From an uncultured Gammaproteobacteria bacterium (GTDB lineage: Bacteria > Patescibacteriota > Patescibacteriia > 2-12-FULL-60-25): a DNA stretch of 49,984 bases. The position numbers and the translations under genes are program-made. This document shows, piece after piece, positions 8,378-49,984 of this stretch (the first letter of the stretch is position 1; every line of letters begins with the position of its first letter). The notes beneath the pieces were generated by a model that did no database searches, was not told where the DNA came from, and was given only the letters and a program-made list of their open reading frames with translations. Where the stretch lies: the NCBI GenBank assembly GCA_964413995.1, contig CAYPUF010000001.1, forward strand, positions 37,403 to 87,386, written 5' to 3'.

Positions 8378-8923
8378 ATGGAACAACAACCAATCACCAT
8401 CGCCCAGGTGGGCAAGCCGGCTCCCGAATTCACCCTGGAAGGGTATTCGCCGGAAGGGGCGTTCAAGGATTATGCGCTGAAGGATTATCTCGGCAAGTGG
8501 GTCGTCCTGTTCTTTTATCCGCTTGACTTCACCTTCATCTGCCCGACGGAGATTACGGAATTCACGTCCAGGAACGAGGATTTCGCCAAGCTGAACGCCG
8601 TCATCCTCGGCGCGTCGACGGATTCGTGCCACTCGCACAAAGCGTGGTGCGAAGGCAGCCTTGGCAAACAGGCGTTCCCCCTTCTCTCCGACATGACTCA
8701 CGGCGTGAGCCGCGCGTACCATGTACTCATCGAGGACAAGGGCATCGCGTTGCGCGGCACCTTCATCATCGATCCGGACGGCGTGCTCCGGTACGCGCTC
8801 TATCATGACAACGGCGTCGGCCGCTCCTGCGCCGAGACGCTCCGCGTACTCGAAGGCCTGCAAACCGGCGAGCTCTGTCCGGCGAGCTGGCACAAGGGGG
8901 ACAAAACGCTCGGAAAAGCGTAA
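8378..8923 (+). CDS. ahpC: typical 2-Cys peroxiredoxin (AhpC/Prx1 family)
   Basis: FFYPLDFTFICPTEI peroxidatic motif and C-terminal GELCPASW resolving Cys. Start taken at ATG 8378 (MEQQPITIAQVGKPAPEF). Confidence 0.88.
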   Translation: MEQQPITIAQVGKPAPEFTLEGYSPEGAFKDYALKDYLGKWVVLFFYPLDFTFICPTEITEFTSRNEDFAKLNAVILGASTDSCHSHKAWCEGSLGKQAFPLLSDMTHGVSRAYHVLIEDKGIALRGTFIIDPDGVLRYALYHDNGVGRSCAETLRVLEGLQTGELCPASWHKGDKTLGKA

Positions 8924-9018
8924 TGCGCAACGCGTAATGCATAACGAAAACGGCCAATCGGCCGCTTTTCGTTTTTTACGTTTTTTTTGCGCTTCGCTCT
9001 ATGCGTGACGCTTTACGC
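8918..9018. repeat. heptamer-word dyad with central terminator hairpin
   Basis: Left arm: gcgtaat gcgcaac gcgtaat gcataac. Centre: ACGAAAACGGCC-aatc-GGCCGcTTTTCGT (8944-8972) plus a T-run. Right arm: gcttcgc tctatgc gtgacgc tttacgc. Both convergent genes stop inside the arms. Confidence 0.75.
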
Positions 9019-9264
9019 CATGGCCTTTTTCTTTGATCCTGCCAGCGCTTCTTCAAGCAGGTTCTTGTTCCATCCGACGATCACATGGCCGTCGACGTCG
9101 ATGACGGGCACGCCCATCTGGCCGGAGAGTTTCACCATCTCCTGCGCGGCCTGCGAATCCGCGGACACGTCGATGTCTTCAAACTCGACCCCTTTTTCCT
9201 TCAGGTAGTCTTTGGTGAGCTTGCAGTACGGACACGTCGGCGTTGAATACACTTTCACATTCAT
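9013..9264 (-). CDS. glutaredoxin-like protein (NrdH/YruB type)
   Basis: MNVKVYSTPTCPYCKLTKDYLKEKGVEFEDIDV carries the CPYC thioredoxin-fold motif. 83 aa. The longer ORF-track version (to 9654) is antisense to pepA. Confidence 0.8.
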   Translation of the reverse strand: MNVKVYSTPTCPYCKLTKDYLKEKGVEFEDIDVSADSQAAQEMVKLSGQMGVPVIDVDGHVIVGWNKNLLEEALAGSKKKAMA

Positions 9265-9290
9265 ACGTGAACCAGTGTACCACATCGCCA

Positions 9291-15965: not shown

Positions 15966-17312
15966 ATGCCAACCAACAACCAACCTTCGGATTTTTACGG
16001 ACTCGGAATCGCGCCCAAATTGCTTGAGGCGCTCGACAAGAATACCTTCACCAATCCCACGCCGATCCAGGCGCAATCCATTCCCGTCGCGCTCAAAGGC
16101 GAGGACGTGATCGGCATCGCGCAAACCGGCACGGGAAAAACGCTCGCCTTCGGCGTGCCGATGATCCAGCGTCTCGCCGCCGTCAAGGGACGCGGCCTGG
16201 TCATTTTGCCGACGCGCGAACTCGCGCTCCAGGTCGACGAAACGTTCCAGAAGATCGGCCGCCACATCAACCTACGCACGGCCATCCTGATCGGCGGCGC
16301 GTCCATGCACCGCCAGAAGCAGGATCTCGCCAAGAAGCCGCATATCATCGTCGCGACGCCCGGTCGTCTCATCGACCATCTCGAACAAAAGACGGTGGAT
16401 CTGTCGAATGTCCGCGTGCTCGTGCTGGACGAAGCGGACCGCATGCTCGATATGGGCTTCGAGCCGCAGATCCGCCGCATCCTCCAGGCCGTGCCGAAGG
16501 AGCGCCAGACCATGCTGTTTTCCGCCACCATGCCGGTAGAGATCGTGAACATCGCGAACCGGTACATGAAACAACCGACGCGCGTGGAAATCGCGCGCGC
16601 CGGCACGGCCGCGGAAAAAGTGACGCAGGAAGTCTATTTCCTCTCGCGCGACGAAAAGCCGATGCTGCTCGAGCAGCTCCTCGGTAAATACGAAGGCACG
16701 GTGCTCGTCTTTACACGTACCAAGCACGGCGCGAGCAAGCTGACGCGCATCCTGAAGCGTTCCGGCCACCGCGCCGCGGAAATCCACTCCGACCGTTCGC
16801 TTTCGCAGCGCCGCCGCGCTCTCGAGGGATTCAAGACCGGCGAGTTCCGTATTCTCGTCGCGACCGATATCGCCGCGCGCGGCATCGATGTGAAGGATAT
16901 CGAGCTCGTCGTGAATTACGACCTGCCGGACAACCCGGACGATTACGTGCATCGCATCGGCCGCACGGGCCGCGCGGGCAAGGCCGGGCACGCCATCTCC
17001 TTTGCCACACCGGACCAGAAAATGGACGTCAAGACGATCGAAAAGCTCATCCGCGCCCAAATCCCGGTGTCCGTGCCGAAGGGATTGCCGCGTCCGACGT
17101 TCAAACCGCCGGAACGCTTCACGCCGGGCGGCGTCCCCGGCGGTCCGAAGCGCTTTGACGAACGCCTCGTGCAGGACCGTTCGGACAAGAAACGCCGCTT
17201 CCAGCCCAAAGGCGGATACAGCCGCGGCAAGGGCCGCGCGAATGACCGCCGCTGGAACGAACCGCCGAAGGACATGCCGAAAGGCGGCCGCCGCGTGAAA
17301 ATCCACGCCTAA
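15966..17312 (+). CDS. DEAD-box ATP-dependent RNA helicase
   Basis: Q motif, AQTGTGKT, PTRELA, VLDEADRMLDMGF, SAT, HRIGRTGRAG, and a basic RG/K-rich C-terminal tail. Start set to MPTNNQ (15966). Confidence 0.92.
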   Translation: MPTNNQPSDFYGLGIAPKLLEALDKNTFTNPTPIQAQSIPVALKGEDVIGIAQTGTGKTLAFGVPMIQRLAAVKGRGLVILPTRELALQVDETFQKIGRHINLRTAILIGGASMHRQKQDLAKKPHIIVATPGRLIDHLEQKTVDLSNVRVLVLDEADRMLDMGFEPQIRRILQAVPKERQTMLFSATMPVEIVNIANRYMKQPTRVEIARAGTAAEKVTQEVYFLSRDEKPMLLEQLLGKYEGTVLVFTRTKHGASKLTRILKRSGHRAAEIHSDRSLSQRRRALEGFKTGEFRILVATDIAARGIDVKDIELVVNYDLPDNPDDYVHRIGRTGRAGKAGHAISFATPDQKMDVKTIEKLIRAQIPVSVPKGLPRPTFKPPERFTPGGVPGGPKRFDERLVQDRSDKKRRFQPKGGYSRGKGRANDRRWNEPPKDMPKGGRRVKIHA

Positions 17313-18611: not shown

Positions 18612-18637
18612 GATTCGAGATTCGTGATTCTTCTTGT

Positions 18638-19632: not shown

Positions 19633-21369
19633 ATGAAACCCCTCTTTCTTCGCGTCGCCGCGATCGTCTCCCCTCTCTTCGCCGCGATGCTCTTGACGGC
19701 TCCGGCCCAGGCCGCGCCCTTCGCGGTCGCTCCGCCCGAGCCGACCCAAACCTTCGTCAATCAAGACACGACGTTTCACTCCGACTTGACGGACGGCGGT
19801 GCCGTGATCGACCACTGCAACCTTTCCGTGGACGGCGTCTCGCACGGAGCCATGACCGTCTTCACCGGTCCGGGGGGCAAGTCGGCCTTCCTTGAGACCA
19901 GCATCTCCGCGGCCGGGACACGGACGGTGCGCGTCACGTGCTATGACGCGAGCGAAAGCAATAGCAGTTATAACGAAACCGCCGTCACCGTATTCAACGA
20001 CACCGCCGCGCCGGGCGTTGGCGCCTTCACCCTCACGCCGGGCTCGCCCGTGGCCGGGACATCAGTGACCATCCAAACCAACTACGACGATACGGACTTC
20101 GGCTCGGGCATCGACAACTGCTCGCTGTACGTCGACGGGGCGTTCATCAGCCTGATGGGCCTCTCCGGCGGCTCCGGCTCGACGGCTGGCAGCGCGACTC
20201 GCGATTACACATTCGGCACAGCCGGCTCCTACGCCGTCGAAGTCAAATGCATGGACTTCTCCGGCAACGTCGGCACGCGTTCAGAGACCGTCTCCGTGAC
20301 GGCACCGCCGGACACGGCCGACCCCGTGGTGAGCGCGATCACGCCGTCGTCCGCGACCGCGGGCGTAGCAGTGAATGTCCAGGCAACGGTTTCGGATAAC
20401 ATCGGCGTCACGTCCTGCGATCTCGAAGTGAACGGCGTGAACCAGGGCGGCATGACCGTGGCGTCGGGACTCGCGACGAAAGCCTTGAGCTTTACGATTA
20501 TCGGCGACAACGCGGTCAAGGTGACGTGTTTCGACGCGGCCGGCAACGCCGGCACGCGGTCGGCGCTTATCAATGTCTCCGATGCCGCCGCCTCCGATAC
20601 GGCCGCGCCGGTGATCGGCACGGTCCTTCCTGCATCGGCGACGCAGAGCGTGGCGACGAACATCGTGGCGGAGGTGACAGACAATGTCGGCGTCTCCTCC
20701 TGCACGCTGACGGTGAATGGCGTGCTCGCAGGCGCCATGAGCGTTGCGGGCATCCCTTCGGGCTCGACGGCGGAGCGCCTGCACAGCTTCACGGTAAGCG
20801 GCAACAATACGATCCGCATCGACTGCCAGGACGCGGCAGGGAACGTGGGAAGCCGCACGACGACGGTCAACGTCTCTGGCTCTGTTTCTCCGACGCCATA
20901 CGCCAACCGCCTCGTGAAACTCGCCTGCCCGGCCGGATTCGTCGATGTCAATCATCCGTGCAAGGCCGTGTACTATGTCGGCTCCGACGGCAAGCGCCAC
21001 GCCTTCCCGAACGAGCGCGTCTACTTCACGTGGTACGCGAACTTCGACGGGATTCTCGAACTGGACGGCGGGACCATGGCCACGATCGTCCTCGGCAGCA
21101 ACGTGAATTACCGCCCGGGAATGCGCATGGTGAAATTCACCACCGTGAACAAGGTGTACGCCGTCGGACGCTACGGACAGCTGCGCTGGGTGACGAGCGA
21201 AGACGTCGCGCGCACGCTGTACGGCACGGACTGGAACCGCAAAATCGACGATATCAACGACGCGTTCTTCACGGACTACACCTTCGGGGCGGACATCACC
21301 TCGGCTTCTTCCTATAACCCGACCGTCGAGGCCGCGACGGCGACGAATATCGACGCGAACCTCCGCTGA
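19633..21369 (+). CDS. secreted surface protein with four HYR/Ig-like repeats and a conserved C-terminal domain
   Basis: Signal peptide (...LTAPAQA). Four repeats of about 95 aa, each with D-N-x-G-V-x-x-C-x-L-x-V-(N/D)-G and V-x-C-x-D-x-(A/S)-G-N-x-G. The C-terminal domain of about 190 aa has a Cys pair. Confidence 0.8.
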   Translation: MKPLFLRVAAIVSPLFAAMLLTAPAQAAPFAVAPPEPTQTFVNQDTTFHSDLTDGGAVIDHCNLSVDGVSHGAMTVFTGPGGKSAFLETSISAAGTRTVRVTCYDASESNSSYNETAVTVFNDTAAPGVGAFTLTPGSPVAGTSVTIQTNYDDTDFGSGIDNCSLYVDGAFISLMGLSGGSGSTAGSATRDYTFGTAGSYAVEVKCMDFSGNVGTRSETVSVTAPPDTADPVVSAITPSSATAGVAVNVQATVSDNIGVTSCDLEVNGVNQGGMTVASGLATKALSFTIIGDNAVKVTCFDAAGNAGTRSALINVSDAAASDTAAPVIGTVLPASATQSVATNIVAEVTDNVGVSSCTLTVNGVLAGAMSVAGIPSGSTAERLHSFTVSGNNTIRIDCQDAAGNVGSRTTTVNVSGSVSPTPYANRLVKLACPAGFVDVNHPCKAVYYVGSDGKRHAFPNERVYFTWYANFDGILELDGGTMATIVLGSNVNYRPGMRMVKFTTVNKVYAVGRYGQLRWVTSEDVARTLYGTDWNRKIDDINDAFFTDYTFGADITSASSYNPTVEAATATNIDANLR

Positions 21370-23719: not shown

Positions 23720-23800
23720 GTCATTGCGAGGAACGAAGTGACGAAGCAATCTCACTCGAACGAAAGAGGGTCCAGATTGCTTCGCTTCGCTCGCAATGAC
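23720..23800. repeat. 81-nt palindrome in the atpD-atpC spacer
   Basis: GTCATTGCGAG (23720-23730) pairs with CTCGCAATGAC (23790-23800). Inner CGAAGCAATCT (23742-23752) pairs with AGATTGCTTCG (23774-23784). Confidence 0.8.
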
Positions 23801-23806
23801 ACGCTT

Positions 23807-25298
<1,492 letters not shown>

Positions 25299-25318
<20 letters not shown>

Positions 25319-26198: not shown

Positions 26199-26226
26199 AG
26201 TGAGTAGAAGGTAGGAAGTAGTGAGT
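26199..26226. repeat. four tandem heptamers in the atpA-atpG spacer
   Basis: agtgagt agaaggt aggaagt agtgagt. These fill most of the 37-nt spacer. No inverted partner. Confidence 0.65.
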
Positions 26227-26229
26227 AGC

Positions 26230-27732
26230 CTAGCGTTTCAGAAGCGTTTTACAGGCTTTGTCCAACTCGGATTTGACGTCATCCTTCAATTCCTTGTCTT
26301 TCTCGATGGTTTCGATGAGCGACGGGAACCGCGCTTCGAACGCCGAAAGATAGTTCTCGATCACCTTCACGGCGTCGGCTTTCGGCACTTCGTCGAGATA
26401 ACCCTTGGTCGCCGCCCACAGCACTGCGACTTCCTGCCACAATGCGAACGGGTGGTTCGCCTTCTGCTTGAGCGCTTCCACGACACGTTCGCCGCGCACG
26501 AGCTGTTTCTTGGTCGCCGCGTCGAGCTCGGACGCGAATTGCGAGAACGCCGCGAGCTCATAGTACTGCGCCAAATCGAGCTTGGCCGTCCCGGACGCTT
26601 TTTTCATGATATGCGTCTGCGCCGCGCCGCCGACGCGCGACACGGAAATGCCGACGTTGATGGCCGGACGGATACCTCGGTAGAACAGCGAAGATTCGAG
26701 GAAGATCTGCCCGTCGGTGATGGAGATCACGTTCGTCGGGATGTACGCGGAGATGTCGCCGGCCTGCGTTTCGACGATCGGAAGCGCCGTTAGCGAGCCG
26801 CCGCCGTTTTCCGGCGACAATTTCGCGGCACGTTCAAGCAAACGCGAGTGGAGATAGAACACGTCGCCCGGATACGCTTCACGGCCCGGCGGCTTGCGCA
26901 GAAGCAACGAAACTTCGCGATACGCCACGGCATGCTTGGACAAATCGTCGTACACGACAAGCGCGTGCTTTCCCTTATTCATGAAATACTCGCCGATCGC
27001 GGCTCCGGCATACGGCGCAAGATACTGCATGACGGCCGGCGACGACGCCGACGCATCCACGACGATCGTGTAATCGAGCGCGCCGCGATCCTTGAGCGTC
27101 TGGACGACCTGTGCCGTGCGAGCCTCGCGCTGGCCGATCGCCACATACACACAGATCATGTCCTTCCCCTCCTGGTTCAGGATCGTGTCGAGTGCGACGG
27201 TCGTCTTGCCGGTCTGGCGGTCGCCGATGATGAGTTCGCGCTGGCCGCGGCCGATCGGGATGAGCGCATCGATCGCCACGATACCCGTCTGGAGCGGTTC
27301 GGAGACGGGCGCGCGCGCCATCACGTCAGGCGCAGGCGACTCGAGCGGCACGTCGGTCATTTTCTTGAGCGCGCCAAGCCCGTCCACCGGCGCACCAAGC
27401 GGGTTCACAACGCGGCCGACGAGCGAGTCGCCGACGCCGATCGTCAGAAAGCGTCCGTCCGACGATGCGGCCAAGCCTTCGCGCACGCGCTCCGACGGCT
27501 GCAACACAACCGCGAGCGCACCGTCGCGGTCCACTTCCATGACGAGCGCATCCGCATCGGCGTCCTCGATGCGCAGAACTTCGCCCATGCGCAGGCCGGG
27601 CAGTCCGGACACGCGGATCACGCCGTCACGGACGCTCTCGACCAGGCCCACGCGGTCTCGACCGGCTTCTTCCGGAACGGATTTTAGCGCCTCATCCAGC
27701 GCCGACAAAAACGATTTCAATGATTCGGACAT
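26230..27732 (-). CDS. atpA: F1 ATP synthase alpha subunit
   Basis: GDRQTGKT Walker A and typical alpha motifs throughout. Confidence 0.97.
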
Positions 27733-27737
27733 AAGGG

Positions 27738-27772
27738 CAGTTACCAGTAATCAGTTGACAGTTGACAGTTTC
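27738..27772. repeat. five tandem heptamers CAGTNNN (reverse complement of the NNAACTG family)
   Basis: cagttac cagtaat cagttga cagttga cagtttc. Spans the atpH stop and ends 5 nt before the atpA ATG. Confidence 0.7.
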
Positions 27773-28143
27773 TGGAGCACGCCTCGCACCTTTGAGCGCC
27801 AGCTCGCGTCTTGCAGCGTCCCGTCGCGGAATAACCGCAGGCCGCCGAGAAGGCCGCGCTCGACGCGAACGCGCACGAGCGTATCCGGTTCGGACGAAAC
27901 GGCCTTGGCGATCGCGGCGGCGGTCTTCGCGTCGGGCTCGGCCGCGACCTGCACGGTCACGGCATCGGCGCCGCCGGAGCGCGAGAGAAAATCGCGTGCG
28001 AGAGGCATATCCTCCGGCGAAGTCCGGCGCACGACCTCGGCGCGCAGGGCTTTGAGAAACGCGCCGGGTTTTGAAACCGACTCGCCGCGGCGGACGCGGG
28101 CGATCTGGCGAAGATCCTCCTTCGACGGAACCGGGAGCTTCAT
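27751..28143 (-). CDS. atpH: F1 ATP synthase delta (OSCP) subunit, short form
   Basis: Operon position; C-terminal OSCP-like block (VRVERGLLGGLRLFRDGTLQDASW). Only 130 aa. Confidence 0.7.
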   Translation of the reverse strand: MKLPVPSKEDLRQIARVRRGESVSKPGAFLKALRAEVVRRTSPEDMPLARDFLSRSGGADAVTVQVAAEPDAKTAAAIAKAVSSEPDTLVRVRVERGLLGGLRLFRDGTLQDASWRSKVRGVLQKLSTVN

Positions 28144-29792: not shown

Positions 29793-29862
29793 GCGTAGAG
29801 TGAAGAGCGTAGGGTGTAGAGTCGGAATCTTCGCTCTATGCTCTATGCTCTATGCTCTTCAT
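29793..29862. repeat. ten in-phase heptamers forming a dyad (atpZ-atpB spacer)
   Basis: gcgtaga gtgaaga gcgtagg gtgtaga gtcggaa | tcttcgc tctatgc tctatgc tctatgc tcttcat. The right arm encodes the last 8 residues and stop of atpZ. Confidence 0.8.
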
Positions 29863-30617: not shown

Positions 30618-31252
30618 ACCGTTTCCATGCGTTCGCGATGTAGTGTGATGAGATCGTTCACGATCAAGCCTGCGCGGCGCACGGCCTCCGCCGGACCCAG
30701 CGAGGGCTCGGCCGCAAGCAGCGCTTCGGCGGCGCGCCAGAGCCACTCCTTGGGTTGGCGATGGTGGTGATGCGCGACCAGCGCCGCCTGTTCGGGCGAA
30801 ACGCCCTGCGCCTGCCAGTTCCGCATGACGGATAGGCCGTGCAGCATCGCGGCGCGCAAGTCCTCTTTTTCCGGATACGCGCCATGCCCGTCCGGGCGCA
30901 CAACCGCCCGATCACGGACGCGTTCCGTGACAACATACTCCAGCGAACCGATGCGGCGCGTCTCCGTGCGGAATGCCGGATCGCCCACGATCGCGTCAAC
31001 ATTGAACCCCTCGACCGCTTTGGCCGGCACGCGCGCGGCCTCGGCTTCCAGCCCGAGCCCGATCTCGCCGTCTTCCTCTTCCAGCCCGATCCCGGTCCCC
31101 TTGAGCAGGCGGTTCGCGCGCTTCCGGAGCTCCGCGCGCAGCCGTTCGCGCTCCTTGGATTCACGCGCCTCGGCCACAGCACGAATGTCGCGCTCTGACC
31201 CGTTTGTCTCGCTCTTCGCTCTTCGCTCTGCACTCTGCGCTTCTCTCATCAT
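30614..31252 (-). CDS. hypothetical charged protein (up to 212 aa)
   Basis: Starts 2 nt after the ftsX stop. The first 16 codons or so are six in-phase heptamer words (31204-31245), so the true start may be downstream (for example the GTG giving VAEARE). Contains an HHHH run. Confidence 0.45.
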   Translation of the reverse strand: MMREAQSAERRAKSETNGSERDIRAVAEARESKERERLRAELRKRANRLLKGTGIGLEEEDGEIGLGLEAEAARVPAKAVEGFNVDAIVGDPAFRTETRRIGSLEYVVTERVRDRAVVRPDGHGAYPEKEDLRAAMLHGLSVMRNWQAQGVSPEQAALVAHHHHRQPKEWLWRAAEALLAAEPSLGPAEAVRRAGLIVNDLITLHRERMETV

Positions 31253-32864: not shown

Positions 32865-32926
32865 GCATGCGTCACGCAGAGAACGGAACGCGTAACGTCG
32901 GACGTTGATGCTCTACGCATGACGCT

Positions 32927-34063
32927 TTATGCAACGCTCTTCGCGACCAGCTCATGTAAACCCGCATCGAAAATCGATGGGATAATCTTTTCCGGCGACG
33001 GCGAAGGAACCGCGGCCGCGATGGCGCGCGCGGCCCGCAGCTTGATCTCGTCCGTGACGCGCCTGACATCCGAGTCGAGCATGCCTCGGAAGAGGCCCGG
33101 ATAGCACAGCGCGTTGTTCACCTGATTCGGAAAATCGCTTCGCCCGGTCGCAAGCACGGCCACGCCGGCCGCCTGCGCGGCGTCGGGCAGGATCTCGGGC
33201 ACGGGGTTCGCAAGCGCAAAGACGATCGGGTCCTTCGCCATGGAGGCGATGATCTCCGGCGTGAACGCGCCGGCCGCCGATACGCCGATGAGCACGTCCG
33301 CGCCGGCGGCCATCTCCGCAAGGGAACCTGGTTGCTTTTCGCGATTCGTGAATCCCGCGACAAGCGCTTTCTCCCCGTTCAGTCCCTCGCGCCCTTCGTA
33401 GATCGCGCCTTGGCGGTCGCACATGACGAGATCCTTTACGCCGGCCGTCGTCAGAAGCTTCGCGGCCGCGATGCCCGCCGCGCCCGCGCCGTTCATCACG
33501 ACACGGATCTCCCCGATCTCCTTGCCGACGACGTTGAGCGCGTTGACCAACCCCGCGAGGATGACGATAGCCGTGCCGTGCTGGTCGTCATGCATCACCG
33601 GCATCCCGAGGCGCTCCATGAGCCGCCGTTCGATCTCGAAACAGCGCGGCGCGGAAATATCCTCGAGCTGGATCGCGCCGAAGCTCGGCGCGATATTCAC
33701 GATCGTCTCGACGATGGCGTCGACATCCTTCGTGTCGAGCACGAGCGGCACGGCGTCGATATCCGAGAAACGCTTGAAGATCGCGCACTTGCCCTCGAGC
33801 ACGGGCATCGCGGCGAGCGGTCCGATGTCGCCGAGTCCAAGCACGGCCGATCCGTCGGAGAAAATCGCGACCGCATTCTTGCGCCAGGTGAGATCGTCCG
33901 CGCGCGACGGATCGCGGGCGATCTCTTCCGACACCGCGCCGACGCCGGGCGAATAGACGAGCGCGAGGTCTTGCGCCGTTTCGATCTTGCAGGTCGTCCC
34001 GATACGGATCTTGCCCCGGAGCTTGGCATGGAGGTCCAGCGAGGCGCGCTTGATATCTGTCAT
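32927..34063 (-). CDS. NAD(P)-dependent malic enzyme (short prokaryotic form)
   Basis: VYSPGV, MHDDQHGTAIV and GAGAAGIA Rossmann motifs. Start at MTDIKRAS (34063). The 613-aa ORF-track version is an antisense read-through. Confidence 0.9.
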   Translation of the reverse strand: MTDIKRASLDLHAKLRGKIRIGTTCKIETAQDLALVYSPGVGAVSEEIARDPSRADDLTWRKNAVAIFSDGSAVLGLGDIGPLAAMPVLEGKCAIFKRFSDIDAVPLVLDTKDVDAIVETIVNIAPSFGAIQLEDISAPRCFEIERRLMERLGMPVMHDDQHGTAIVILAGLVNALNVVGKEIGEIRVVMNGAGAAGIAAAKLLTTAGVKDLVMCDRQGAIYEGREGLNGEKALVAGFTNREKQPGSLAEMAAGADVLIGVSAAGAFTPEIIASMAKDPIVFALANPVPEILPDAAQAAGVAVLATGRSDFPNQVNNALCYPGLFRGMLDSDVRRVTDEIKLRAARAIAAAVPSPSPEKIIPSIFDAGLHELVAKSVA

Positions 34064-34096: not shown

Positions 34097-34741
34097 ATGA
34101 CCAACGAACTGCAAGCATTCGTGAAGGAAGGGCTGGCAAAGGGGTTGGGCCGGGACAAGATGAAGGCCGCCCTGCTTGAAGCCGGCTGGCAGGAAGACGA
34201 GGTCCGCAACGCCCTTGCCTCGTATGCGGAGGTCGCGTTTCCCATCCCGGTGCCCAAGCGCAAGCCGTATCTTTCGGCGCGCGAGGCCTTCATGTATCTC
34301 GTGATGTTCCTCACGCTGTACGTGACGGCGTTCAGCGTCGGCACGATCCTCTTCCAGCTCGTCAACCTGTGGCTGCCGGATCCGGCCCAGATCGCCTACG
34401 GCTACGCGTCGGATTATTCGACGAGCCTGATCCGTTCCTCGACCGCCGCCATCATCATCACGTTCCCGCTGTTCCTCTTCATGGCCCGCCTCCTGCAACG
34501 CGCCATCAAGCGGGATCCGTCCAAACGTTCGAGCCTGATCCGCAAGTGGCTCACCTATATCACGCTGTACTTCGCGACCGGCATCATCGTAGGCGACCTG
34601 ATCACGCTCGTGACCTACGTCCTGAACGGCGACCTGACCCTGCGCTTTGTCCTGAAGGTACTCGTGGTGCTCGTCATCGCGGGCAGCATCTTCGGCTATT
34701 ATCTCTGGGATCTGCGCACCGAAGAAAAAGAAACCGTATGA
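34097..34741 (+). CDS. DUF5671-like membrane protein
   Basis: Soluble N-terminal helix bundle (LKEGLAKG...EVRNAL-type) followed by 4 TM segments, an architecture common in CPR genomes. Confidence 0.65.
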   Translation: MTNELQAFVKEGLAKGLGRDKMKAALLEAGWQEDEVRNALASYAEVAFPIPVPKRKPYLSAREAFMYLVMFLTLYVTAFSVGTILFQLVNLWLPDPAQIAYGYASDYSTSLIRSSTAAIIITFPLFLFMARLLQRAIKRDPSKRSSLIRKWLTYITLYFATGIIVGDLITLVTYVLNGDLTLRFVLKVLVVLVIAGSIFGYYLWDLRTEEKETV

Positions 34742-35226
34742 AGAAAAAAGAACCGGGAGCGGAACCAACCAAATACGACACGCTCGGATTCCGCGTGTTC
34801 GTCGGCGCGGTCATCGCGGCCGTCCTTGCCGTGCTGGTCGCGGGCCTGTGGCTCGGCGGCTCGCCGGCGCAGGAACGCGCGCGGCGGCTCGATGCGGCGC
34901 GCGTCTCGGATTTGCAGAACATCTCCAACGCGATCGACCAGTACTACAACGCGAACAACGCACTGCCGCCTGATCTCGCCATGCTCACCCGCTCCCGAGA
35001 GACATACTTCGTCGGCAACATCAACGACCCGGAAACCGGCAGGCCCTACGAATACATGACCCGCACCGCGAACACGTACGATCTCTGCGCGACGTTCGCG
35101 ACGGACAACCGGGAGGAACAGGCGCCACGCCCGCGCGAGCCGTACCCGGCCTGGGAAAGCCGTTTCTGGGAACACGGGCCGGAACACACCTGCTTCACCA
35201 TCACCGCCCGGACGTTCCCGAAATAA
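34738..35226 (+). CDS. membrane-anchored pilin-like protein
   Basis: ATGA overlap with the previous gene. A TM anchor is followed by RRLDAARVSDLQNISNAIDQYYNANNALP, which resembles the alpha1-C region of type IV pilins. No G/FTLIE prepilin cleavage motif. Confidence 0.55.
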   Translation: MKKKEPGAEPTKYDTLGFRVFVGAVIAAVLAVLVAGLWLGGSPAQERARRLDAARVSDLQNISNAIDQYYNANNALPPDLAMLTRSRETYFVGNINDPETGRPYEYMTRTANTYDLCATFATDNREEQAPRPREPYPAWESRFWEHGPEHTCFTITARTFPK

Positions 35227-35228
35227 TT

Positions 35229-35675
35229 ATGAATGTCGATTACGCTTCCATCACCCTGCCGAAAACGGATTTGGCGGAATTGTATCGCGGCTTGGTGCTG
35301 CGCCACCTGGTGGAAAACGAAATCCGGCGTGAAGAAGGACTGGAGGAGGCGGGGGAACCGAAGGTGCTGATCGCGCTCGAATCCGCGCTGAATCTCACGG
35401 ACACCGAGGCCGACGCGCTGTATCACCGCGCCGAGGACGAGCTGTGGGATTACGCGTGGTATGCGTACACGGACGAATGGGCGTGGTTCCGGGCGCGACA
35501 GGAGGTGCTCGAGGAGCTGGGCACCAAACGGACGGGGTTGACGCAGGAGGCGCTGGACCGCAAGACGGAAGACCGCTATCGCGAAAAGTTCGACGCGTAT
35601 GTCGCGGAGATCGACATGCGCGAACCGGCGGCAAGCACAAAAAAGAAAAAGGAGAAGAAACGGGCACAAAAGTGA
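35229..35675 (+). CDS. hypothetical acidic Trp-rich protein with Lys-rich tail
   Basis: Starts 2 nt after the previous stop. Contains DELWDYAWYAYTDEWAWF. No family recognised. Confidence 0.55.
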   Translation: MNVDYASITLPKTDLAELYRGLVLRHLVENEIRREEGLEEAGEPKVLIALESALNLTDTEADALYHRAEDELWDYAWYAYTDEWAWFRARQEVLEELGTKRTGLTQEALDRKTEDRYREKFDAYVAEIDMREPAASTKKKKEKKRAQK

Positions 35676-35740
35676 AACGTGAAGGTGAAGAGTGAAACGC
35701 CTGACGCTACGCTCTACGCGTTACGCTCTACGCTTTTTTT
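35672..35740. repeat. two tandem heptamer arrays plus T7
   Basis: gtgaaac gtgaagg (g)tgaaga gtgaaac, then gctacgc tctacgc gttacgc tctacgc, then ttttttt. The arms are not complementary. Confidence 0.65.
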
Positions 35741-37450: not shown

Positions 37451-37532
37451 CAAGCGGTAGACCACCCCCTGCCCCCTCCTCAGAGGAGGAGTGGGTGCCG
37501 AGCGAGAGCGAGGCGGGGCGGTCTACCGCTTG
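37451..37532. repeat. 82-nt nested hairpin
   Basis: 13-bp perfect outer stem CAAGCGGTAGACC / GGTCTACCGCTTG. Inner CTCCTC-agag-GAGGAG core (37472-37497), related to 12740-12780. The right arm contains the stop of the upstream gene. Confidence 0.8.
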
Positions 37533-40978: not shown

Positions 40979-41899
40979 ATGGACAAAACCCTCGGCATGT
41001 GGATTTCCGGCGCCGCGCAGGCGCTGGAAGCGATCGCGGAAGACCGCGAGCAGGCCTGGATCGAGGCAAGAAGGCTCGCGGCATTCGGTTTGAAAAAACC
41101 GGAATCCTGGCTCGTGGCGCATACGGACAAGACGCTGACAAAAAGACAGACGGACGCGCTCGCCCCGTTACGGAAACGTAGGCTCAAACGCGAGCCCATG
41201 GAATATCTCCTCGGTTCGGCCGTTTTCTTCGGCCGGGAATTCGCCGTCGACAAGCACGTCCTGATTCCGCGCCCGGAGACCGAGGATCTTGTCGTCGAAG
41301 CGTTGAAGGAGATCCGGCCGGGCGATCTCGTCGTAGAGATCGGGACCGGGTCGGGCGCGATCGCCATCACCGTCGCGGCCGAACGCCCCGGCGTGACGGT
41401 GTTCACAAGCGATACCGACGCGGCCGCGCTCTCGGTCGCAAGAAAAAACGCGCGGCGACTCGCGCCGGGGCGCATCCGCTTCTTCCACGGATCGCTGTTC
41501 CATCCCGCACTGATCCGTGCGATTCGCACCGCAGGAGCAAGGCGCGCCTTGCCCCTACGCATCCACACGCTCGCCAATCTCCCCTATCTTCCGTTCTCCG
41601 ACCGGAAAACCATGCCCGTCTCGGTCGTGAAATACGAACCCGCCAAGGCGCTCTTCGCGAAAGATGATGGGATGGAATTGAACAAAAAATTGATGGAACA
41701 GGTAGGGGCGCAATTCATTGCGCCCCCGAGCGGGCGTGATAAATCACGCCCCTACATGGCCATTCTCCTCGAACTCGACCCGCCGCAATCAAAAAAACTC
41801 TCCGCCTTTGCGAAGAGCCTCTTTCCCGATGCCGATGTTTCCATCATCCGCGACCGATGCGGGAGAGAAAGAATTTTACGCGTAACGCGTAGAGCATGA
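40979..41899 (+). CDS. prmC: peptide chain release factor N5-glutamine methyltransferase (PrmC/HemK)
   Basis: EPMEYLLGSAVFFGREF, LIPRPETE, EIGTGSGAI, and a catalytic tetrad present as NLPY. Carries palindromic insert(s). Confidence 0.85.
   Translation: MDKTLGMWISGAAQALEAIAEDREQAWIEARRLAAFGLKKPESWLVAHTDKTLTKRQTDALAPLRKRRLKREPMEYLLGSAVFFGREFAVDKHVLIPRPETEDLVVEALKEIRPGDLVVEIGTGSGAIAITVAAERPGVTVFTSDTDAAALSVARKNARRLAPGRIRFFHGSLFHPALIRAIRTAGARRALPLRIHTLANLPYLPFSDRKTMPVSVVKYEPAKALFAKDDGMELNKKLMEQVGAQFIAPPSGRDKSRPYMAILLELDPPQSKKLSAFAKSLFPDADVSIIRDRCGRERILRVTRRA
41702..41755 (+). repeat. in-frame double-hairpin palindromic element, copy 2 (54 nt)
   Basis: GTAGGGGCG...CGCCCCTAC 9-bp terminal inverted repeats. 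GGGGCGCAA-ttca-TTGCGCCCC and GGGCGTGA-taaa-TCACGCCC hairpins. Translated as VGAQFIAPPSGRDKSRPY. Confidence 0.85.
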
Positions 41900-41945
41900 C
41901 GCGCAACGCCGACGCTACGCCTTTACGCTCTATGCTCTGCGCTTC
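41875..41945. repeat. heptamer-word imperfect dyad between convergent genes
   Basis: gcgtaac gcgtaga gcatgac gcgcaac ... gctacgc ctttacg ctctatg ctctgcg. The prmC stop lies inside the left arm. Confidence 0.6.
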
Positions 41946-44228: not shown

Positions 44229-44288
44229 CAGATAACAGAAAACGGTTAACAGTGCCCTTGCTCTCAACTGTCATCCGTCAACCGTGCA

Positions 44289-44290
<2 letters not shown>
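44229..44290. repeat. CAGNNNN / NNAACTG-type heptamer words, imperfect dyad
   Basis: cagataa cagaaaa cggttaa cagtgcc ... tcaactg tcatccg tcaaccg, between the gyrB stop and the downstream gene. Confidence 0.55.
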
Positions 44291-46358
<2,068 letters not shown>

Positions 46359-46500
46359 TTAGCAGAAAACACGTCAAAATCCAACCCTAAGTCAAGACCT
46401 CTCTGTCGTCTTGCACAACGCAAGGGATCTCCAACGAAGGGAGACGCCTCCTTCCGTGCTGAATGACAAAAGCTTCATGTTCAATGTTTCCTGTTCAAGG

Positions 46501-46506
46501 TAAAAT
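46501..46506 (+). promoter_or_regulatory. -10 box TAAAAT, 6 nt upstream of the ATG
   Basis: TAAAAT gtctcc ATG (46513). No SD. Confidence 0.4.
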
Positions 46507-46512
46507 GTCTCC

Positions 46513-47391
46513 ATGGCAGAGAACCATGTCATCGGCTCCGGCCTGACCGAGCAGGAAATGAAGGTCGCGTCGTTTTGGGTACGAAATCGTCTCCTGCTGC
46601 GACGGATCGGCTACGGGAGCCTCATCGCCTTCGCGGGCGGAATGTGGGCGTACGTGCTTTGGTCGCTTCTCGACGCGTATGCGATTTCGTACCCGCGCGA
46701 GTCGCGCATCCATCGCGTCATCGTGCAAAACCAGCTCGCGATCGACGGCTTGCGCGCCTCCGCGCCGCGCCCCATCGAACCGAGCCAGGCATCCGTGTTC
46801 GATGCAACGGATAACCGGCAGGACCTGCTCGTGGAAATCCTGAATCCGAACGCAACGTGGTGGGCGGAATTCGACTATCAATTCGATCTTTCCGGCGAAC
46901 GCACACCGTTGCGCAAGGGGTACGTCCTGCCCAGCAGCCGCCGCTACCTGACCGAGCTCGGCTTTACGCCGGAAACCCGGGGGCGCACCGCGCGGCTCGT
47001 CGTGGAAAACATCCGGTGGATGCGCATCGATCCGGCGGCGGTTGGCGGGAATTACGAAGCGTTCGCCGATGCGCGCCTCCAATTCCGCGCCGAAAACCCC
47101 ACCTACACCCGCGATCTCACTATCGGCACGCAAACCGTCGGCCAAAGCGCGTTCCAACTCGTAAACGACAGCGCGTTCGGTTTTTGGAACCCGAGCGTCA
47201 CGGTCGTGCTGTATCGCGGCACGAATCCGGTCGGTGTGACAACGATCCAGCCGCCGCTGATCCGAGCCGGAGAAACGCTTCCTATCACGATCAACTGGTT
47301 CGAAAACCTTGCGGGAGTCAGCCGCACGGACGTGCAGGTGAACGTGAACATCCTGGATCGTGGCGCCTATTTGCCGACAAGCGGGATTTAA
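46513..47391 (+). CDS. hypothetical membrane-anchored protein upstream of rodA/ftsW
   Basis: One TM segment (GYGSLIAFAGGMWAYVLWSLL) followed by a beta-rich domain of about 230 aa. No family recognised. Confidence 0.65.
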   Translation: MAENHVIGSGLTEQEMKVASFWVRNRLLLRRIGYGSLIAFAGGMWAYVLWSLLDAYAISYPRESRIHRVIVQNQLAIDGLRASAPRPIEPSQASVFDATDNRQDLLVEILNPNATWWAEFDYQFDLSGERTPLRKGYVLPSSRRYLTELGFTPETRGRTARLVVENIRWMRIDPAAVGGNYEAFADARLQFRAENPTYTRDLTIGTQTVGQSAFQLVNDSAFGFWNPSVTVVLYRGTNPVGVTTIQPPLIRAGETLPITINWFENLAGVSRTDVQVNVNILDRGAYLPTSGI

Positions 47392-47394
47392 AAA

Positions 47395-47456
47395 AGAAAT
47401 TAGAAGTTAGAATCTAGGCTAATTGGCTCGCTTCTAGATTCTAGCTTCTAACTTCT
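47395..47456. repeat. TAGAAG-word hairpin, homologous to 25208-25318
   Basis: agaaatt agaagtt agaatct agg ... loop ... cttctag attctag cttctaa cttctcc. About 22 bp of stem with 2 mismatches. Confidence 0.8.
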
Positions 47457-47461
47457 CCCCC

Positions 47462-47470
47462 TGCTAAGGT
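47462..47470 (+). promoter_or_regulatory. extended -10-like TGcTAAGGT, 6 nt upstream of the ATG
   Basis: TGc TAAGGT cgctcc ATG (47477). Confidence 0.35.
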
Positions 47471-47476
47471 CGCTCC

Positions 47477-48622
47477 ATGACCCGCATCCTCGAACTCTTC
47501 CAGCGCATCGACTGGATGATGCTGACGGTCGCGCTGACGCTCACCTCGATCGGGCTCGTAGCCATATACGGCATCGGTGTCTCGCAGGAACCGGCGGACC
47601 TCTTCCTGTTCCAAAAGCAATTCGTCACCGCCCTGATCGGCGTCGGACTGGTGGTACTGTTGGCGCTGTTCGATTACCGCCATCTGCGCGCCTACGGATT
47701 TGTCCTCTACCTCGCCGGCGCGCTCCTGCTCGTCGCCGTACTTTTCTTCGGCGTAGAAGTCAACGGCACGCAGGGCTGGTTTCGCGTCGGCGCGCTTTCC
47801 TTCCAGCCGATCGAGGTCGCGAAAGTGACGCTCGCGATCTATCTCGCCGCGTTCTACGCCAAGCGCGGACGCGGCCGGCTCGCATGGACGACCTTTCTCA
47901 TGGGCGGCATCGCCACGGGCATCTACACCGCGCTCGCCTTCCTGCAGCCGGACTTCGGCTCCGGCATGGTCCTCGTGCTGATCTGGGGCGGCATCTCCGC
48001 CTTCGCGGGCCTGCCGAAGCGCGCCTGGATCATCCTCCCGCTGCTCCTCGTTACGACCGGCGCGGTCGCGTGGAGCTATGCGCTCAAGCCGTACCAGCGC
48101 GCGCGCATCGAATCGTTCCTCGATCCGACAACGGATCCGCGCGGCTCCGGCTATAACGCGATCCAGGCGCGTATCGCCATCGGATCCGGCGGAATCTTCG
48201 GCAAAGGCATCGGCGAGGGCTCGCAGGCGCGCCTACGCTTCCTGCCCGCCGCATCGACGGACTTCATTTTCGCGGTGGTCGGCGAAGAAATGGGCTTGGT
48301 CGGCGTCATCTTCGTCTTTTTCATGTTTTTCCTGCTTCTCTCGCGTTTTCTTCGGCTCGGGGACGAATCGGAAGACGATTTTGCCGCCTATCTCCTCGTC
48401 GGCATCGGATCAATGTATCTCATCCACCTCTGCGTGAACGCGGGCATGAATCTGGGACTCCTGCCCATCACCGGCATTCCGATGCCGTTTCTCTCGGCCG
48501 CCGCATCGAACCTGCTCGTGATCTACGCCTGCATCGGTCTCGCGCAATCCGTGGCCGTCCGCCGCCGGGGCACCCTCGAACGCGGTACCGGCGTCATGCT
48601 GTTTGAGGAAGCAAACAGTTAA
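47477..48622 (+). CDS. SEDS-family peptidoglycan polymerase (FtsW/RodA)
   Basis: 10 TM segments; QPIEVAKV, PDFGSGMV, GSGYNAIQARIAIGSGGIFGKG and TDFIFAVVGEE motifs. Confidence 0.88.
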   Translation: MTRILELFQRIDWMMLTVALTLTSIGLVAIYGIGVSQEPADLFLFQKQFVTALIGVGLVVLLALFDYRHLRAYGFVLYLAGALLLVAVLFFGVEVNGTQGWFRVGALSFQPIEVAKVTLAIYLAAFYAKRGRGRLAWTTFLMGGIATGIYTALAFLQPDFGSGMVLVLIWGGISAFAGLPKRAWIILPLLLVTTGAVAWSYALKPYQRARIESFLDPTTDPRGSGYNAIQARIAIGSGGIFGKGIGEGSQARLRFLPAASTDFIFAVVGEEMGLVGVIFVFFMFFLLLSRFLRLGDESEDDFAAYLLVGIGSMYLIHLCVNAGMNLGLLPITGIPMPFLSAAASNLLVIYACIGLAQSVAVRRRGTLERGTGVMLFEEANS

Positions 48623-48669
48623 CAGATAACAGTGATCCGTCTGGAAACTGGTAACTGTTTACTGTTAAC
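48612..48669. terminator. NNAACTG-word imperfect hairpin between convergent genes
   Basis: aaacagttaacagataacagtg ... gaaactggtaactgtttactgttaac. AAACAGTTA pairs with TAACTGTTT. The register is ambiguous because of the 7-nt periodicity. Confidence 0.5.
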
Positions 48670-49984
48670 TTTGCAGCCTCACATCCACCCCTTCCGTTTT
48701 TCGGAAGCCGATGCGGTCCGGCGCCTCATCGCCCAACGTTAGCATCTTGCCGAGCACGAGCGAATCCAACCCATACCGGTCACGGACGGCATCCATCGCT
48801 TTGGACACGGCCTGCCGACGCTCGGGCGCCATTTCCTCGCGTAAGCCGTTCACCTTGAGATGGAAGCGGCGCTGATGCGTCGGGATGGTGAGATCGAACA
48901 GCGTCACGGCGAGAAAATTGACGCGTTGACCGCTCCACAGCTCGCGCAGAAGGTCCAACGCCGTACCGACAACCGTGAACGAATCGTCCGACGGTTCGGC
49001 GAACCACGCATGAACGGAACCGCCCGGCCCGTCGGATCCCGGCGTCCAGAACGGTCCTTGGGGTCGCGGGCCGTTCGGCGTCTTCAGGCCGACGGACACG
49101 GAGATCCCGTTCGCAAGCAATCCGAGCCCGCGCATGCGCCGGCCCGCGCGCTCGGTGAGCCGCATGAGCGTCGCTTCGACTTTCTTTTCGCGGTTCACGC
49201 GATCCGGCACGCAATACGAATGCCCGACGGACTTCGGCGGCGCTTCGGTCGTTTCGCCATCCGCGGCCACACCCTCGATGTCCGCGCCCTGCAATCGCGC
49301 CTGGAGATAAAAACCATTCACACCGAACGCGCGGATGAGATTTTCGGTCGAACCGTATTTGATCTGTAACAAAGTGTCGTACCCGAGCCGCTCGAGCCGC
49401 CGGCGCATGCGCGGTCCGATCCCGCACACGTCCTCAAGATCGAGCCGTGAAAGCACGTCGTCGATCGTTTCATGCGTGATGATGGTGAGTCCGTCGGGCT
49501 TTTGGAGATCGGACGCGGTCTTGGCGAGAAACCGCGTCGGCGCGATCCCGACCGAACAGCGCAGCCACTCGCCGACCTCCTCCGTGATACGACGCTTGAC
49601 GGTGGAAAGCGCGAACGCCGCCTCGGCCGCGTCGCGATACCAGCCCGTGAGATCGAGGAACGCCTCGTCAATGGAATAATGCTCCATGCGGTCGGTCAGC
49701 TCGTGCAGGATCGAGAAGATACGCGAAGTCACCGCGCGGTACTTGGGCGGATCATTTTGGACGAAGACCGCGTTCGGCACGGCTTGCTTGGCCTCGTTCA
49801 TCGTCATGCCGACCTTGATGCCGAGCTTTTTCGCTTCGACGGAAGCCGCGATCACGCAACCATGCGGATGCAAATACGCGCAGACGCCCAGCGGCTTGCC
49901 GCGCAACGTGGGGTTCGCCTGCTGCTCCACGGACGCGAAATACGAGTTCATGTCCACATGCGCAATCAGCTTTTCCGAACGCGG
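48665..49984 (-). CDS. dinB: DNA polymerase IV (DinB), N-terminus cut by window end
   Basis: The frame stays open to base 49984 (..EKLIAHVDMNSYFASVEQ). Typical Y-family motifs (DMNSYFASVE, SIDEAFLD). Confidence 0.9.
   Translation of the reverse strand, partial: PRSEKLIAHVDMNSYFASVEQQANPTLRGKPLGVCAYLHPHGCVIAASVEAKKLGIKVGMTMNEAKQAVPNAVFVQNDPPKYRAVTSRIFSILHELTDRMEHYSIDEAFLDLTGWYRDAAEAAFALSTVKRRITEEVGEWLRCSVGIAPTRFLAKTASDLQKPDGLTIITHETIDDVLSRLDLEDVCGIGPRMRRRLERLGYDTLLQIKYGSTENLIRAFGVNGFYLQARLQGADIEGVAADGETTEAPPKSVGHSYCVPDRVNREKKVEATLMRLTERAGRRMRGLGLLANGISVSVGLKTPNGPRPQGPFWTPGSDGPGGSVHAWFAEPSDDSFTVVGTALDLLRELWSGQRVNFLAVTLFDLTIPTHQRRFHLKVNGLREEMAPERRQAVSKAMDAVRDRYGLDSLVLGKMLTLGDEAPDRIGFRKTEGVDVRLQS

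Follow-up and report, generated by a model that had tools for sequence, protein, structure and literature searches.

The 49,984-nt stretch of contig CAYPUF010000001.1 analyzed here (the window) carries arrays of tandem seven-base units (heptamers) in the spacers between its genes. Tandem heptamer repeats have been noted in bacteria since 1990, and to our knowledge nobody can explain the seven-base unit or the role of these repeats. The window has a G+C content of 61% and a coding fraction of 94%. Its gene map, made from reading frames based on G+C content at third codon positions (GC3) together with Pfam, shows a dense set of housekeeping genes: era, two peroxiredoxins, pepA, ftsEX, the atpZBEFHAGDC operon (with atpZ identified by PF09527), pyrF, prmC, rplY, gyrB, ftsW and dinB. 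The host is a relative of Candidatus Uhrbacteria, in the Candidate Phyla Radiation (CPR). The AtpB protein encoded in the window has its best match, at 95% identity, in 'Candidatus Uhrbacteria bacterium UHB N2_1', and other Uhrbacteria and CPR bacteria come next. The sequencing runs for the region are subsurface, groundwater and rock metagenomes. A sister species, represented by two NCBI assemblies that are identical to each other (JAPKGP010000002.1 and RHKK01000005.1), shares about 85% nucleotide identity with the window in coding DNA and is syntenic with it across most of its length. A search of the window against Rfam finds two tRNAs as the only matches, with no rRNA and no family that matches any of the arrays.

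The array between atpZ and atpB (29793-29862, minus strand) is an inverted pair of heptamer arms, to be referred to as a dyad. On the mRNA strand, the purine-rich 5′ arm contains three copies of GCATAGA and one of GCGAAGA, the loop is TTCCGAC, and the pyrimidine-rich 3′ arm has the units TCTACAC, CCTACGC, TCTTCAC and TCTACGC. Eight nucleotides separate the end of the 3′ arm from the atpB ATG (29784, minus strand), and the other arm covers the last codons of atpZ. The identity between bases seven positions apart (lag-7 identity) is 0.62 (p 0.0005). The sequence is exactly as given in the original prediction, an earlier reading of the window for which this dyad was the exemplar, and it is identical in other samples. 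The dyad is missing from the sister species, in which a gap of 6 nt separates atpZ from atpB.

The period-7 signal was counted over the window and a 40-kb syntenic stretch of the sister species. An array region was defined as a stretch in which 16 or more of 21 positions agree at lag 7, with Markov-1 shuffles as the control, and individual spacers were tested by their lag-7 identity against a composition shuffle. There are 13 lag-7 regions in the window, compared to 0.3 in the shuffles. With the same threshold, 0 regions are found in the window at lags 2, 4, 5, 8, 10, 11 and 13, and besides lag 7 there is signal solely at multiples of 3, due to coding periodicity, and at lag 14. In non-coding DNA, the autocorrelation reaches 0.335 at lag 7, with 0.304 and 0.308 at lags 14 and 21, and is about 0.26 at other lags. 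In coding DNA, the lag-7 identity is 0.256 and period 3 alone is visible. These values confirm the proposal of a period-7 layer in intergenic DNA. Both features expected of long simple sequence repeats (LSSR) and short tandemly repeated repetitive sequences (STRR) are present here, namely tandem 7-nt repetition beyond chance and confinement to non-coding DNA. The exceptions to this confinement are array ends that overlap the termini of open reading frames (ORFs) and one in-frame array in the gyrB linker. The syntenic stretch of the sister species has 7 lag-7 regions, with 0.05 expected.

Lag-7 identity is significant (p ≤ 0.002, composition shuffle) in 16 of the 18 spacers that had been listed as examples. 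The other two, 23720-23800 (lag-7 identity 0.19, p 0.90) and 37451-37532 (0.31, p 0.39), were rejected as heptamer arrays; both are ordinary palindromes that happen to parse into 7-mers. One array beyond this list was found at 18612-18637. By our count from the spacer and array lists, about 13 of the 29 spacers of at least 35 nt bear an array, so that the earlier statement that most spacers longer than 35 nt do so was somewhat generous. There are at least five unrelated word families in the window, including GCGTAGA, GTGAAGA, AGAAGCT and NNAACTG, and no sequence motif is common to them. A YAG every 7 nt was considered as such a motif and rejected, as it fits 5 of 21 arrays in the window and 39 of 197 in the PF05635 loci described below. 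Arrays of the same family at different loci are 89-92% identical, with the 'variable' positions included, which suggests copying among loci.

One Logan contig, assembled from a different run, matches the window at 100% identity across 45002-48963, and in Logan contigs of X2 and X4, runs that come from different samples and studies, the exemplar dyad and the AGAAGCT array show 0 differences. Rock-metagenome strains with at least 99% identity to the window carry substitutions but no 7-nt indels, and near-identical strains give no sign of the hypervariability that slippage-prone DNA, as originally proposed, would have. Across 80 loci that surround atpB, lag-7 arrays are present only in the nearest relative (61% G+C) and in a few unrelated loci. 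No lag-7 arrays are found around atpB in Uhrbacteria with 73-75% AtpB identity and 46-49% G+C.

The purine-richer half comes first in all 11 period-7 dyads of the window. Because such a dyad is its own reverse complement, this rule holds on both strands, and it is therefore a property of the element and not of the direction of transcription. The loops of the dyads are 5-57 nt long. The z scores of the folds, relative to shuffles, are between -2.1 and -7.4, except for 32865-32945 on the plus strand (-0.8). The 5′ arms are rich in stop codons, with all three frames closed in 9 of 22 arms compared to 3% of shuffles, and the 3′ arms are not, with all three frames closed in 4 of 22. An advantage of the sense strand from G·U pairs, which would indicate selection at the RNA level, was looked for and rejected, as three dyads fold better on the sense strand and two on the antisense strand, with no consistent direction.

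Several dyads are located between co-directional genes. The one between atpG and atpD (25208-25318, minus strand) has four perfect copies of AGAAGCT, a loop of 57 nt and, overlapping the atpG stop codon, an imperfect complementary arm. It ends 6 nt before the atpD ATG, its arms are 88% complementary, and its fold has a z score of -4.5. In the dyad between h292 and ftsW (47395-47456, plus strand), an AGAANNT arm is followed by an ANNTTCT arm (91% complementary, z = -7.1), and the right arm shares 89% identity with the one at 25290-25317 (repeat family D8). The dyad before bcp (7776-7859, plus strand; lag-7 identity 0.47, p 0.0005) consists of a GNGNAGA-type arm and then a TCTTCAC/GCTTCAC-type arm that reaches the ATG. 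Three other dyads are located directly before a TATACT box that is followed, 6-8 nt later, by an ATG. The first is between the malic-enzyme gene and ftsE (32865-32945, minus strand; lag-7 identity 0.46, p 0.001; TATACT-N6-ATG), with a weak fold on the minus strand as well (z = -2.1). The second, between gyrB and h109 (44229-44290, minus strand; TATACT-N8-ATG), has a CAGTTGA-type arm and then an NNAACTG-type arm. Its sense strand folds with -18.8 kcal/mol (z = -4.6), and it differs by one substitution and no indel in another sample. The third is before the DUF6938 gene (35672-35740, plus strand) and is followed by T7, TATACT and the probable true ATG at 35757, an arrangement that looks like a terminator set directly before a leaderless promoter.

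The remaining dyads are at the 3′ ends of genes. The one at 3497-3577 (lag-7 identity 0.49) is between convergent genes. The dyad 3′ of the ahpC-like gene (8918-9018; z = -6.0) has GCGTAAT/GCGCAAC units, with periods of 14 and 7, and a T-rich center. Between the convergent prmC and DUF3048 genes, the dyad (41875-41945; significant lag-7 identity) enters both ORF ends. Between the convergent ftsW and dinB genes (48612-48669; significant lag-7 identity), an AACAG arm is followed by a CTGTT arm, and the right arm is 92% identical to the array before era (family D2). Apart from the T7 after the stem at 35672-35740 and the T-rich center at 8918-9018, most dyads have no T-tract. Among spacers of at least 35 nt, arrays are present in 13 of 24 that are co-directional or convergent and in 0 of 5 that are divergent (hand-computed one-sided hypergeometric p of about 0.04, for a test with 5 divergent spacers).

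Alignments by BLAST to the sister species stop exactly at the spacers. Six dyads are absent or replaced there, those at atpZ-atpB, atpG-atpD, malic-ftsE, prmC-DUF3048, h292-ftsW and ftsW-dinB. The prmC and DUF3048 ORFs overlap in the sister species, as do those of ftsW and dinB. A MITE-like palindrome (where MITE stands for miniature inverted-repeat transposable element), GTCATCCCGAGCGAA..., takes the place of the dyad at atpG-atpD, malic-ftsE and h292-ftsW, accompanied in the last case by a CTGTTAA-type tandem array before the ftsW ATG. At the position of 8918-9018 there is a plain perfect palindrome, and at 3497-3577 the hairpin in the center is retained, with variation in the outer heptamer arms. 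Before bcp, the pyrimidine-rich arm alone is kept, as a solo tandem array of five TCTTCAC units. The dyad at 35672-35740 is kept, but one of its arms reads GTGWAGA in the sister species where the window has GCGTAGA, a difference shared by all four units and pointing to concerted change. As most dyads have no counterpart at the orthologous position in the sister species, they are dispensable and resemble insertions.

The second class of arrays is tandem-only and is located at start codons. The array before era (1848-1875, plus strand) has four NNAACTG units (lag-7 identity 0.81), is unstructured (z = 0.3), and ends 5 nt before the ATG. It is 100% identical in the sister species. Five NNAACTG units (on the mRNA strand) are found before atpA (27738-27772, minus strand), overlapping the C-terminus of atpH and again ending 5 nt before the ATG, and the 101 nt of this junction (27700-27800) are 100% identical to the sister species, versus 86% overall. 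A CTACTCA-type array (on the mRNA strand) fills the atpA-atpG spacer up to the atpG ATG (26199-26226, minus strand), and this spacer is 95% identical to that of the sister species. Three GAATCNC units abut the h254 ATG (18612-18637, minus strand; lag-7 identity 0.68), and this array is in place in the sister species (34136-34170) with 2-3 substitutions. In front of the tRNA-methyltransferase gene trmA (422-442, plus strand; lag-7 identity 0.86), three TTACGTG units end 7 nt before the probable ATG, and at the corresponding position the sister species carries a related word, ACGTTTC, in five units. The start of ftsW is preceded by an array in both species, with different words.

The start-proximal arrays of era, atpA, atpG, h254 and trmA are all located 0-8 nt before their start codons. 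They fold no better than shuffles, and partner arms are found for none of the tandem-only arrays within 2.5 kb. One more tandem array, with GAAGAGC-type units on the mRNA strand (31204-31245, minus strand; significant lag-7 identity), is just past the ftsX stop codon, within the annotated 5′ end of h212, and is poorly conserved in the sister species. The originally described mixture of dyads and tandem-only arrays is thus borne out, with folding dividing the two, and so is the observation that many arrays enter ORF ends and halt a few bases before an ATG. The notion of a single layer does not hold, as the two classes have opposite evolutionary behavior, the dyads turning over and the start-proximal arrays being conserved.

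The genes of the window nearly all start without a Shine-Dalgarno (SD) sequence, with SD-like 4-mers before 1 of 34 ATG starts versus 4.2 expected. The base at position -1 is T or C in 32 of these 34 starts, and positions -3 and -2 are C-rich. In many genes of the window, TATACT or a different TAnnnT box precedes the ATG by 6-8 nt, which suggests leaderless mRNAs. When the arrays are read by eye as tandem -10 boxes (TAnnnT), those of era, bcp, atpB and atpD fit, and those of atpA, atpG, h254 and trmA do not.

The closest parallel to the era and atpA arrays is provided by the TAACTGA direct repeats, which have 2-6 units, are mostly in the forward orientation, and are located a few nucleotides before start codons that have no ribosome-binding site (RBS) (MacGregor 2015, PMC4679880). 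Some of those repeats overlap the end of the upstream ORF (PMC4679880). The NNAACTG arrays are likewise forward direct repeats of 2-6 units, 5 nt before an ATG with no SD sequence, and overlap an upstream ORF end. The exact word is different, with the units GTAACTG, TCAACTG, TTAACTG and TAAACTG, and the best match in another phase, TAACTGT, has 6 of 7 bases. In addition, NNAACTG is one of several families in the window and also forms dyad arms (44229-44290 and 48612-48669), and the hosts of TAACTGA repeats (Beggiatoaceae, cyanobacteria and Bacteroidetes) belong to other phyla.

A link between the dyads and a protein family is provided by the sister species. Its atpD-atpC spacer, which is orthologous to the window spacer 23725-23806, contains a gene (8368-8718 of locus L088, JAPKGP010000002.1) for a 116-residue protein of PF05635 ('23S rRNA intervening-sequence protein'; E 6.5e-39), with a weaker match to bAvd. 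Proteins of PF05635 are four-helix bundles. The gene is bracketed by heptamer arms, with GTTTCAG, GTGACAG, GTGTCAG and GTTCCAG upstream and CTGACAC, CTGAAAC, CTGGCAC and CTGACAC downstream, and 3 nt lie between the downstream arm and the atpC ATG. When joined, the two arms fold with -51 kcal/mol.

This association was examined in 80 metagenome loci (L090-L169) that were picked solely by similarity to the sister PF05635 protein. Lag-7 arrays are present in 92 of 150 windows that flank PF05635 genes, versus 53 of 1564 background windows. With intergenic DNA alone as the control, they are found in 46 of 80 gaps adjacent to a PF05635 gene (58%) and in 12 of 97 other gaps (12%), corresponding to an odds ratio of 9.6 (p 1.4e-10). 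Lags 5, 10 and 11 are near zero in these flanks, and lag 8 represents a minor second class. The mean GC skew is +0.48 for the upstream arm and -0.50 for the downstream arm, and in 33 of 37 loci the higher value is that of the upstream arm, which matches the polarity of the window dyads. Moreover, dyads that contain no ORF are found elsewhere in these loci. Those in L101 have the words of the cassette arms of the same locus, and those in L098 have the GTGAAGA/TCTTCAC words of the window itself. Our literature searches found no paper stating a general association between PF05635 genes and heptamer arms, and none on heptamer arrays in Patescibacteria. As a separate observation, arrays with period 8 rather than 7 are found at about 13-16% of the PF05635 flanks (19 of 150 windows and 13 of 80 gaps).

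The arms of these cassettes resemble those of the 23S intervening sequences with an S23p/PF05635 ORF in Coxiella burnetii and Leptospira, which have a long inverted-repeat stem with two to three GACAGAT units on its 5′ side. The Coxiella intervening sequence contains heptamers, whose copy number varies between strains, and RNase III cuts it at the first repeat (Warrier et al., PMC4990558). In both systems the purine-rich arm comes first, an arm ends just before a start codon, and, in the sister species, a PF05635 gene is located between such arms. In comparison, the window dyads have the inverted, purine-first heptamer stem in 11 of 11 cases and no PF05635 ORF between the arms, and they are in mRNA spacers between protein genes and not in 23S rRNA.

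The dyad architecture, with 7-nt periodic, purine-first arms that abut stop and start codons, matches that of PF05635 cassettes and intervening-sequence stems, and the dyads would therefore be their ORF-less relatives. We give an even chance to the reading in which the dyads are ORF-less stems of the intervening-sequence kind and the start-proximal arrays serve as leader elements in the manner of the TAACTGA repeats. According to this reading, a dyad, an inverted pair of three to five degenerate heptamers, would be an ORF-less version of the stem that brackets PF05635 genes. Slippage or duplication would create it and extend it by 7 bases at a time, with the units changing in concert, as suggested by the periodicity and the concerted unit changes. 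Dyads would be gained and lost as whole blocks between species and tolerated solely downstream of genes, and because they are dispensable they would be mostly selfish or neutral. Their transcripts would form stems of about 20-35 bp. The stems of intervening sequences are known RNase III substrates, and by analogy with true intervening sequences the dyad stems in the transcript are probably RNase III targets too or serve as 3′ hairpins. Of the roles listed in the original prediction, RNA processing or stabilizing sites and selfish DNA are the best candidates for the dyads. The start-proximal arrays most likely belong to the translation-initiation region, as has been proposed for the TAACTGA repeats of Beggiatoaceae.

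Several observations weigh against this interpretation. A tblastn search finds no PF05635 homolog in the window, and the link of its dyads to PF05635 consequently rests on the shared architecture and one sister cassette. The exemplar dyad folds with -21.8 kcal/mol on the sense strand and -38.9 kcal/mol on the plus (antisense) strand, and the lack of a consistent sense-strand gain among the dyads argues against strong selection on an mRNA stem. Whole-heptamer gain or loss between strains, a comparison put forward in the original prediction, is not seen in contigs of four other samples at 99-100% identity, which is weak evidence against slippage because contigs drop rare variants. The small number of divergent spacers limits the placement argument, and the 100% identity of the atpH-atpA junction could come partly from coding constraint or a recombination tract. 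Finally, the three metatranscriptomes of the source study contain only fragments of conserved genes of other organisms and of the MITE-like palindrome.

A broader version of this idea is that bacterial heptamer arrays in general, including STRR, TAACTGA repeats, heptanucleotide simple sequence repeats (SSRs) and those of the window, are stems, solo arms or footprints of one widespread class of selfish PF05635 cassette, the same entity as the ORF-bearing 23S intervening sequence. The elements would insert after genes on either strand, and, as purine-first 7-nt arms close all three frames of the 5′ arm, insertion at gene ends would do little harm. In a CPR genome that lacks SD sequences, start-proximal arms would have been co-opted as translation leaders or as RNase III sites that release mRNAs with short leaders. 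We regard this generalization as unlikely.

The arrays may instead be purely mutational, neutral SSRs without function, in which slippage favors 7-nt units, and unrelated to PF05635 cassettes; they would then build up at any site where selection permits. Heptanucleotide SSRs are present in many prokaryotes and are the commonest class of long SSR, with slippage as the suggested cause (Mrazek, Guo and Shah 2007, as cited in PMC4679880 and PMC4692102). The diversity of the words with no common motif, the absence of dispensable dyads at orthologous sites, and the lack of a sense-strand folding gain are all compatible with neutrality. However, neutral SSRs leave unexplained the purine-first polarity (11 of 11 window dyads and, judged by GC skew, 33 of 37 PF05635 loci), the roughly 10-fold excess of arrays beside PF05635 genes, the identity of 89-92% between loci, and the 95-100% conservation of start-proximal arrays while other spacers cannot be aligned. 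This explanation is improbable.

Another possibility is that the dyads are selected terminators or insulators, in the form of bidirectional hairpins mostly without a U-tract, or 3′ mRNA stabilizers like the repetitive extragenic palindromic (REP) elements, with the periodicity being incidental. The dyads are indeed found only downstream of genes (0 of 5 divergent spacers), their stems are strong (z down to about -7), a TATACT -10 box and an ATG come directly after 32865-32945, 35672-35740 and 44229-44290, and a T7 ends 35672-35740. On the other hand, the sister species often lacks a hairpin at the orthologous positions, with a 6-nt gap or overlapping ORFs instead, and the hairpin is therefore not required. 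Two dyads are inside the atp operon, where termination would be harmful, and the exemplar forms a weak hairpin on the sense strand. The window shows no excess of terminator-like sites (28, with 21.9 ± 5 expected), which agrees with the earlier view that simple U-tract terminators are not the explanation. We consider selected hairpins of this kind improbable.

It has also to be considered that the arrays are sites for an oligomeric protein that reads one unit per 7 nt, such as a cold-shock-domain protein, ribosomal protein S1 or a PF05635 pentamer, and so define a regulon. The start-proximal arrays are unstructured and conserved, as such sites could be, and binding by S1, Csp or CsrA was proposed for the TAACTGA repeats by MacGregor (PMC4679880). 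However, the presence of at least five unrelated word families within 50 kb makes a single sequence-specific reader unlikely, the ftsW start is preceded by different words in the two species, and no candidate protein was identified, so that we hold this explanation to be very improbable. As rivals of the main reading, neutral slippage, selected terminators and protein-binding arrays still carry substantial weight. An assembly or binning artefact limited to the window, raised in the original prediction as a possible refutation, has next to no chance of being correct, as the arrays are unchanged in contigs of independent samples and studies and the same excess is found in the two NCBI assemblies of the sister species.

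The arrays of the window are a real and well-organized case of a known but unexplained class of repeat, with a replicated lead on the origin of the dyads. They share with LSSR and STRR the tandem 7-nt units, the strong over-representation, the almost wholly intergenic location, the restriction to particular lineages and the lack of an explanation, and the resemblance to STRR noted originally (tandem, intergenic heptamers in several word families) is supported. In comparison, the window arrays are short (3-5 units) and degenerate, fall into several word families, form purine-first inverted pairs in about half of the cases, and are in a CPR host. STRR words (CCCCAGT and the like) are absent from the window and the host is not a heterocystous cyanobacterium, so that these are not STRR in the strict sense.

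The original prediction named heterocystous cyanobacteria as the known source of such repeats, but equivalents reach far outside this group, as in the heptanucleotide repeats of many prokaryotes, the GGGAATC arrays of Xanthomonas, the TAACTGA repeats and the 23S heptamers of Coxiella. The GGGAATC arrays occupy intergenic positions near the 3′ end of the ORF upstream (Rehm et al. 2015, PMC4692102). Related species differ in the length and sequence of these arrays, and divergent spacers are rarer among those with arrays than among controls (PMC4692102). Like the window arrays, the GGGAATC and GGGGA(C/T)T arrays of Xanthomonas and Nostoc often keep their position, and some are paired as inverted repeats. 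They consist of one G-rich word that can form G-quadruplexes, whereas the words of the window are many and do not. REP elements, bacterial interspersed mosaic elements (BIMEs) and MITE-like palindromes are, like the dyads, small, dispersed and hairpin-forming, located after genes, and gained or lost between relatives. The heptamer dyads differ from these in having periodic arms, variable loops and no common termini, with no transposase identified. The GCGTAGA words include GTAG, the tag of the palindromes in systems of REP elements and their associated tyrosine transposases (RAYTs), but the arms are periodic, unlike the usual REP stem.

We know of no earlier description of heptamer arrays in a genome of the Patescibacteria (CPR). 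The window extends these repeats to organisms with tiny genomes and very little spare DNA, and it separates two behaviors that are usually lumped together, disposable hairpins and conserved start-codon arrays. The association with PF05635, in the atp operon of the sister species and in 80 unrelated metagenome loci, ties dyads to intervening sequences. A pattern without an explanation is thereby turned into testable hypotheses, namely RNase III cleavage, SD-less translational leaders and a selfish cassette.

The two plain palindromes among the listed spacers are both of the plain REP/BIME and MITE-like kind. The one between atpD and atpC (23720-23800; GTCATTGCGAGGAACGAAG...CTCGCAATGAC), at the site of the sister PF05635 cassette, is of a MITE/REP-like family (GTCATYSCGAGSRAMG ... 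GCTCGGGATGAC) that occupies this one spacer in the window and four spacers in the sister species. Sister copies are found at 9177-9317 and 16800-16917 of locus L082 and, in the relative, at 4558-4698 and 34909-35017, and fragments of the palindrome are also present in metatranscriptome contigs of other organisms. The other, at 37451-37532, is a near-perfect palindrome of 82 nt with a GGAGG/CCTCC core (-58 kcal/mol).

Repeats are also found within coding sequences. The in-frame array in gyrB (44557-44599), with the units AGCGCAA, AGCGTAA, AGCGCAG and AGCGTGA and a period of 7 and 14, lies in the acidic/basic linker of GyrB, and its conservation in the sister species is about 90%. Coding sequences also contain two copies of a double-hairpin element (GGGGCGCAATTCATTGCGCCC ... 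GGGCGTGATAAATCACGCCCC), at 41699-41758 (prmC) and 1317-1364 (the tRNA methyltransferase gene). Near the dyad at 35672-35740, the DUF6938 gene probably starts at the ATG at 35757, with TATACT-N8 before it, and not at the GTG at 35679. The plus-strand ORF that ends at 35675 (148 residues) competes with a minus-strand ORF at 35046-35669, and the sister species has two annotated genes, for 148 and 162 residues, on the strand of the former. The flanks of tRNA-Val and tRNA-Gln in the sister species (L082:1132-1410 and 19637-19986) contain several CACGTAAAAAC...GTTTTTACGTG palindromes together with GCCACGT words, a combination that is not present in the window and is located in the sister species beside tRNA genes.

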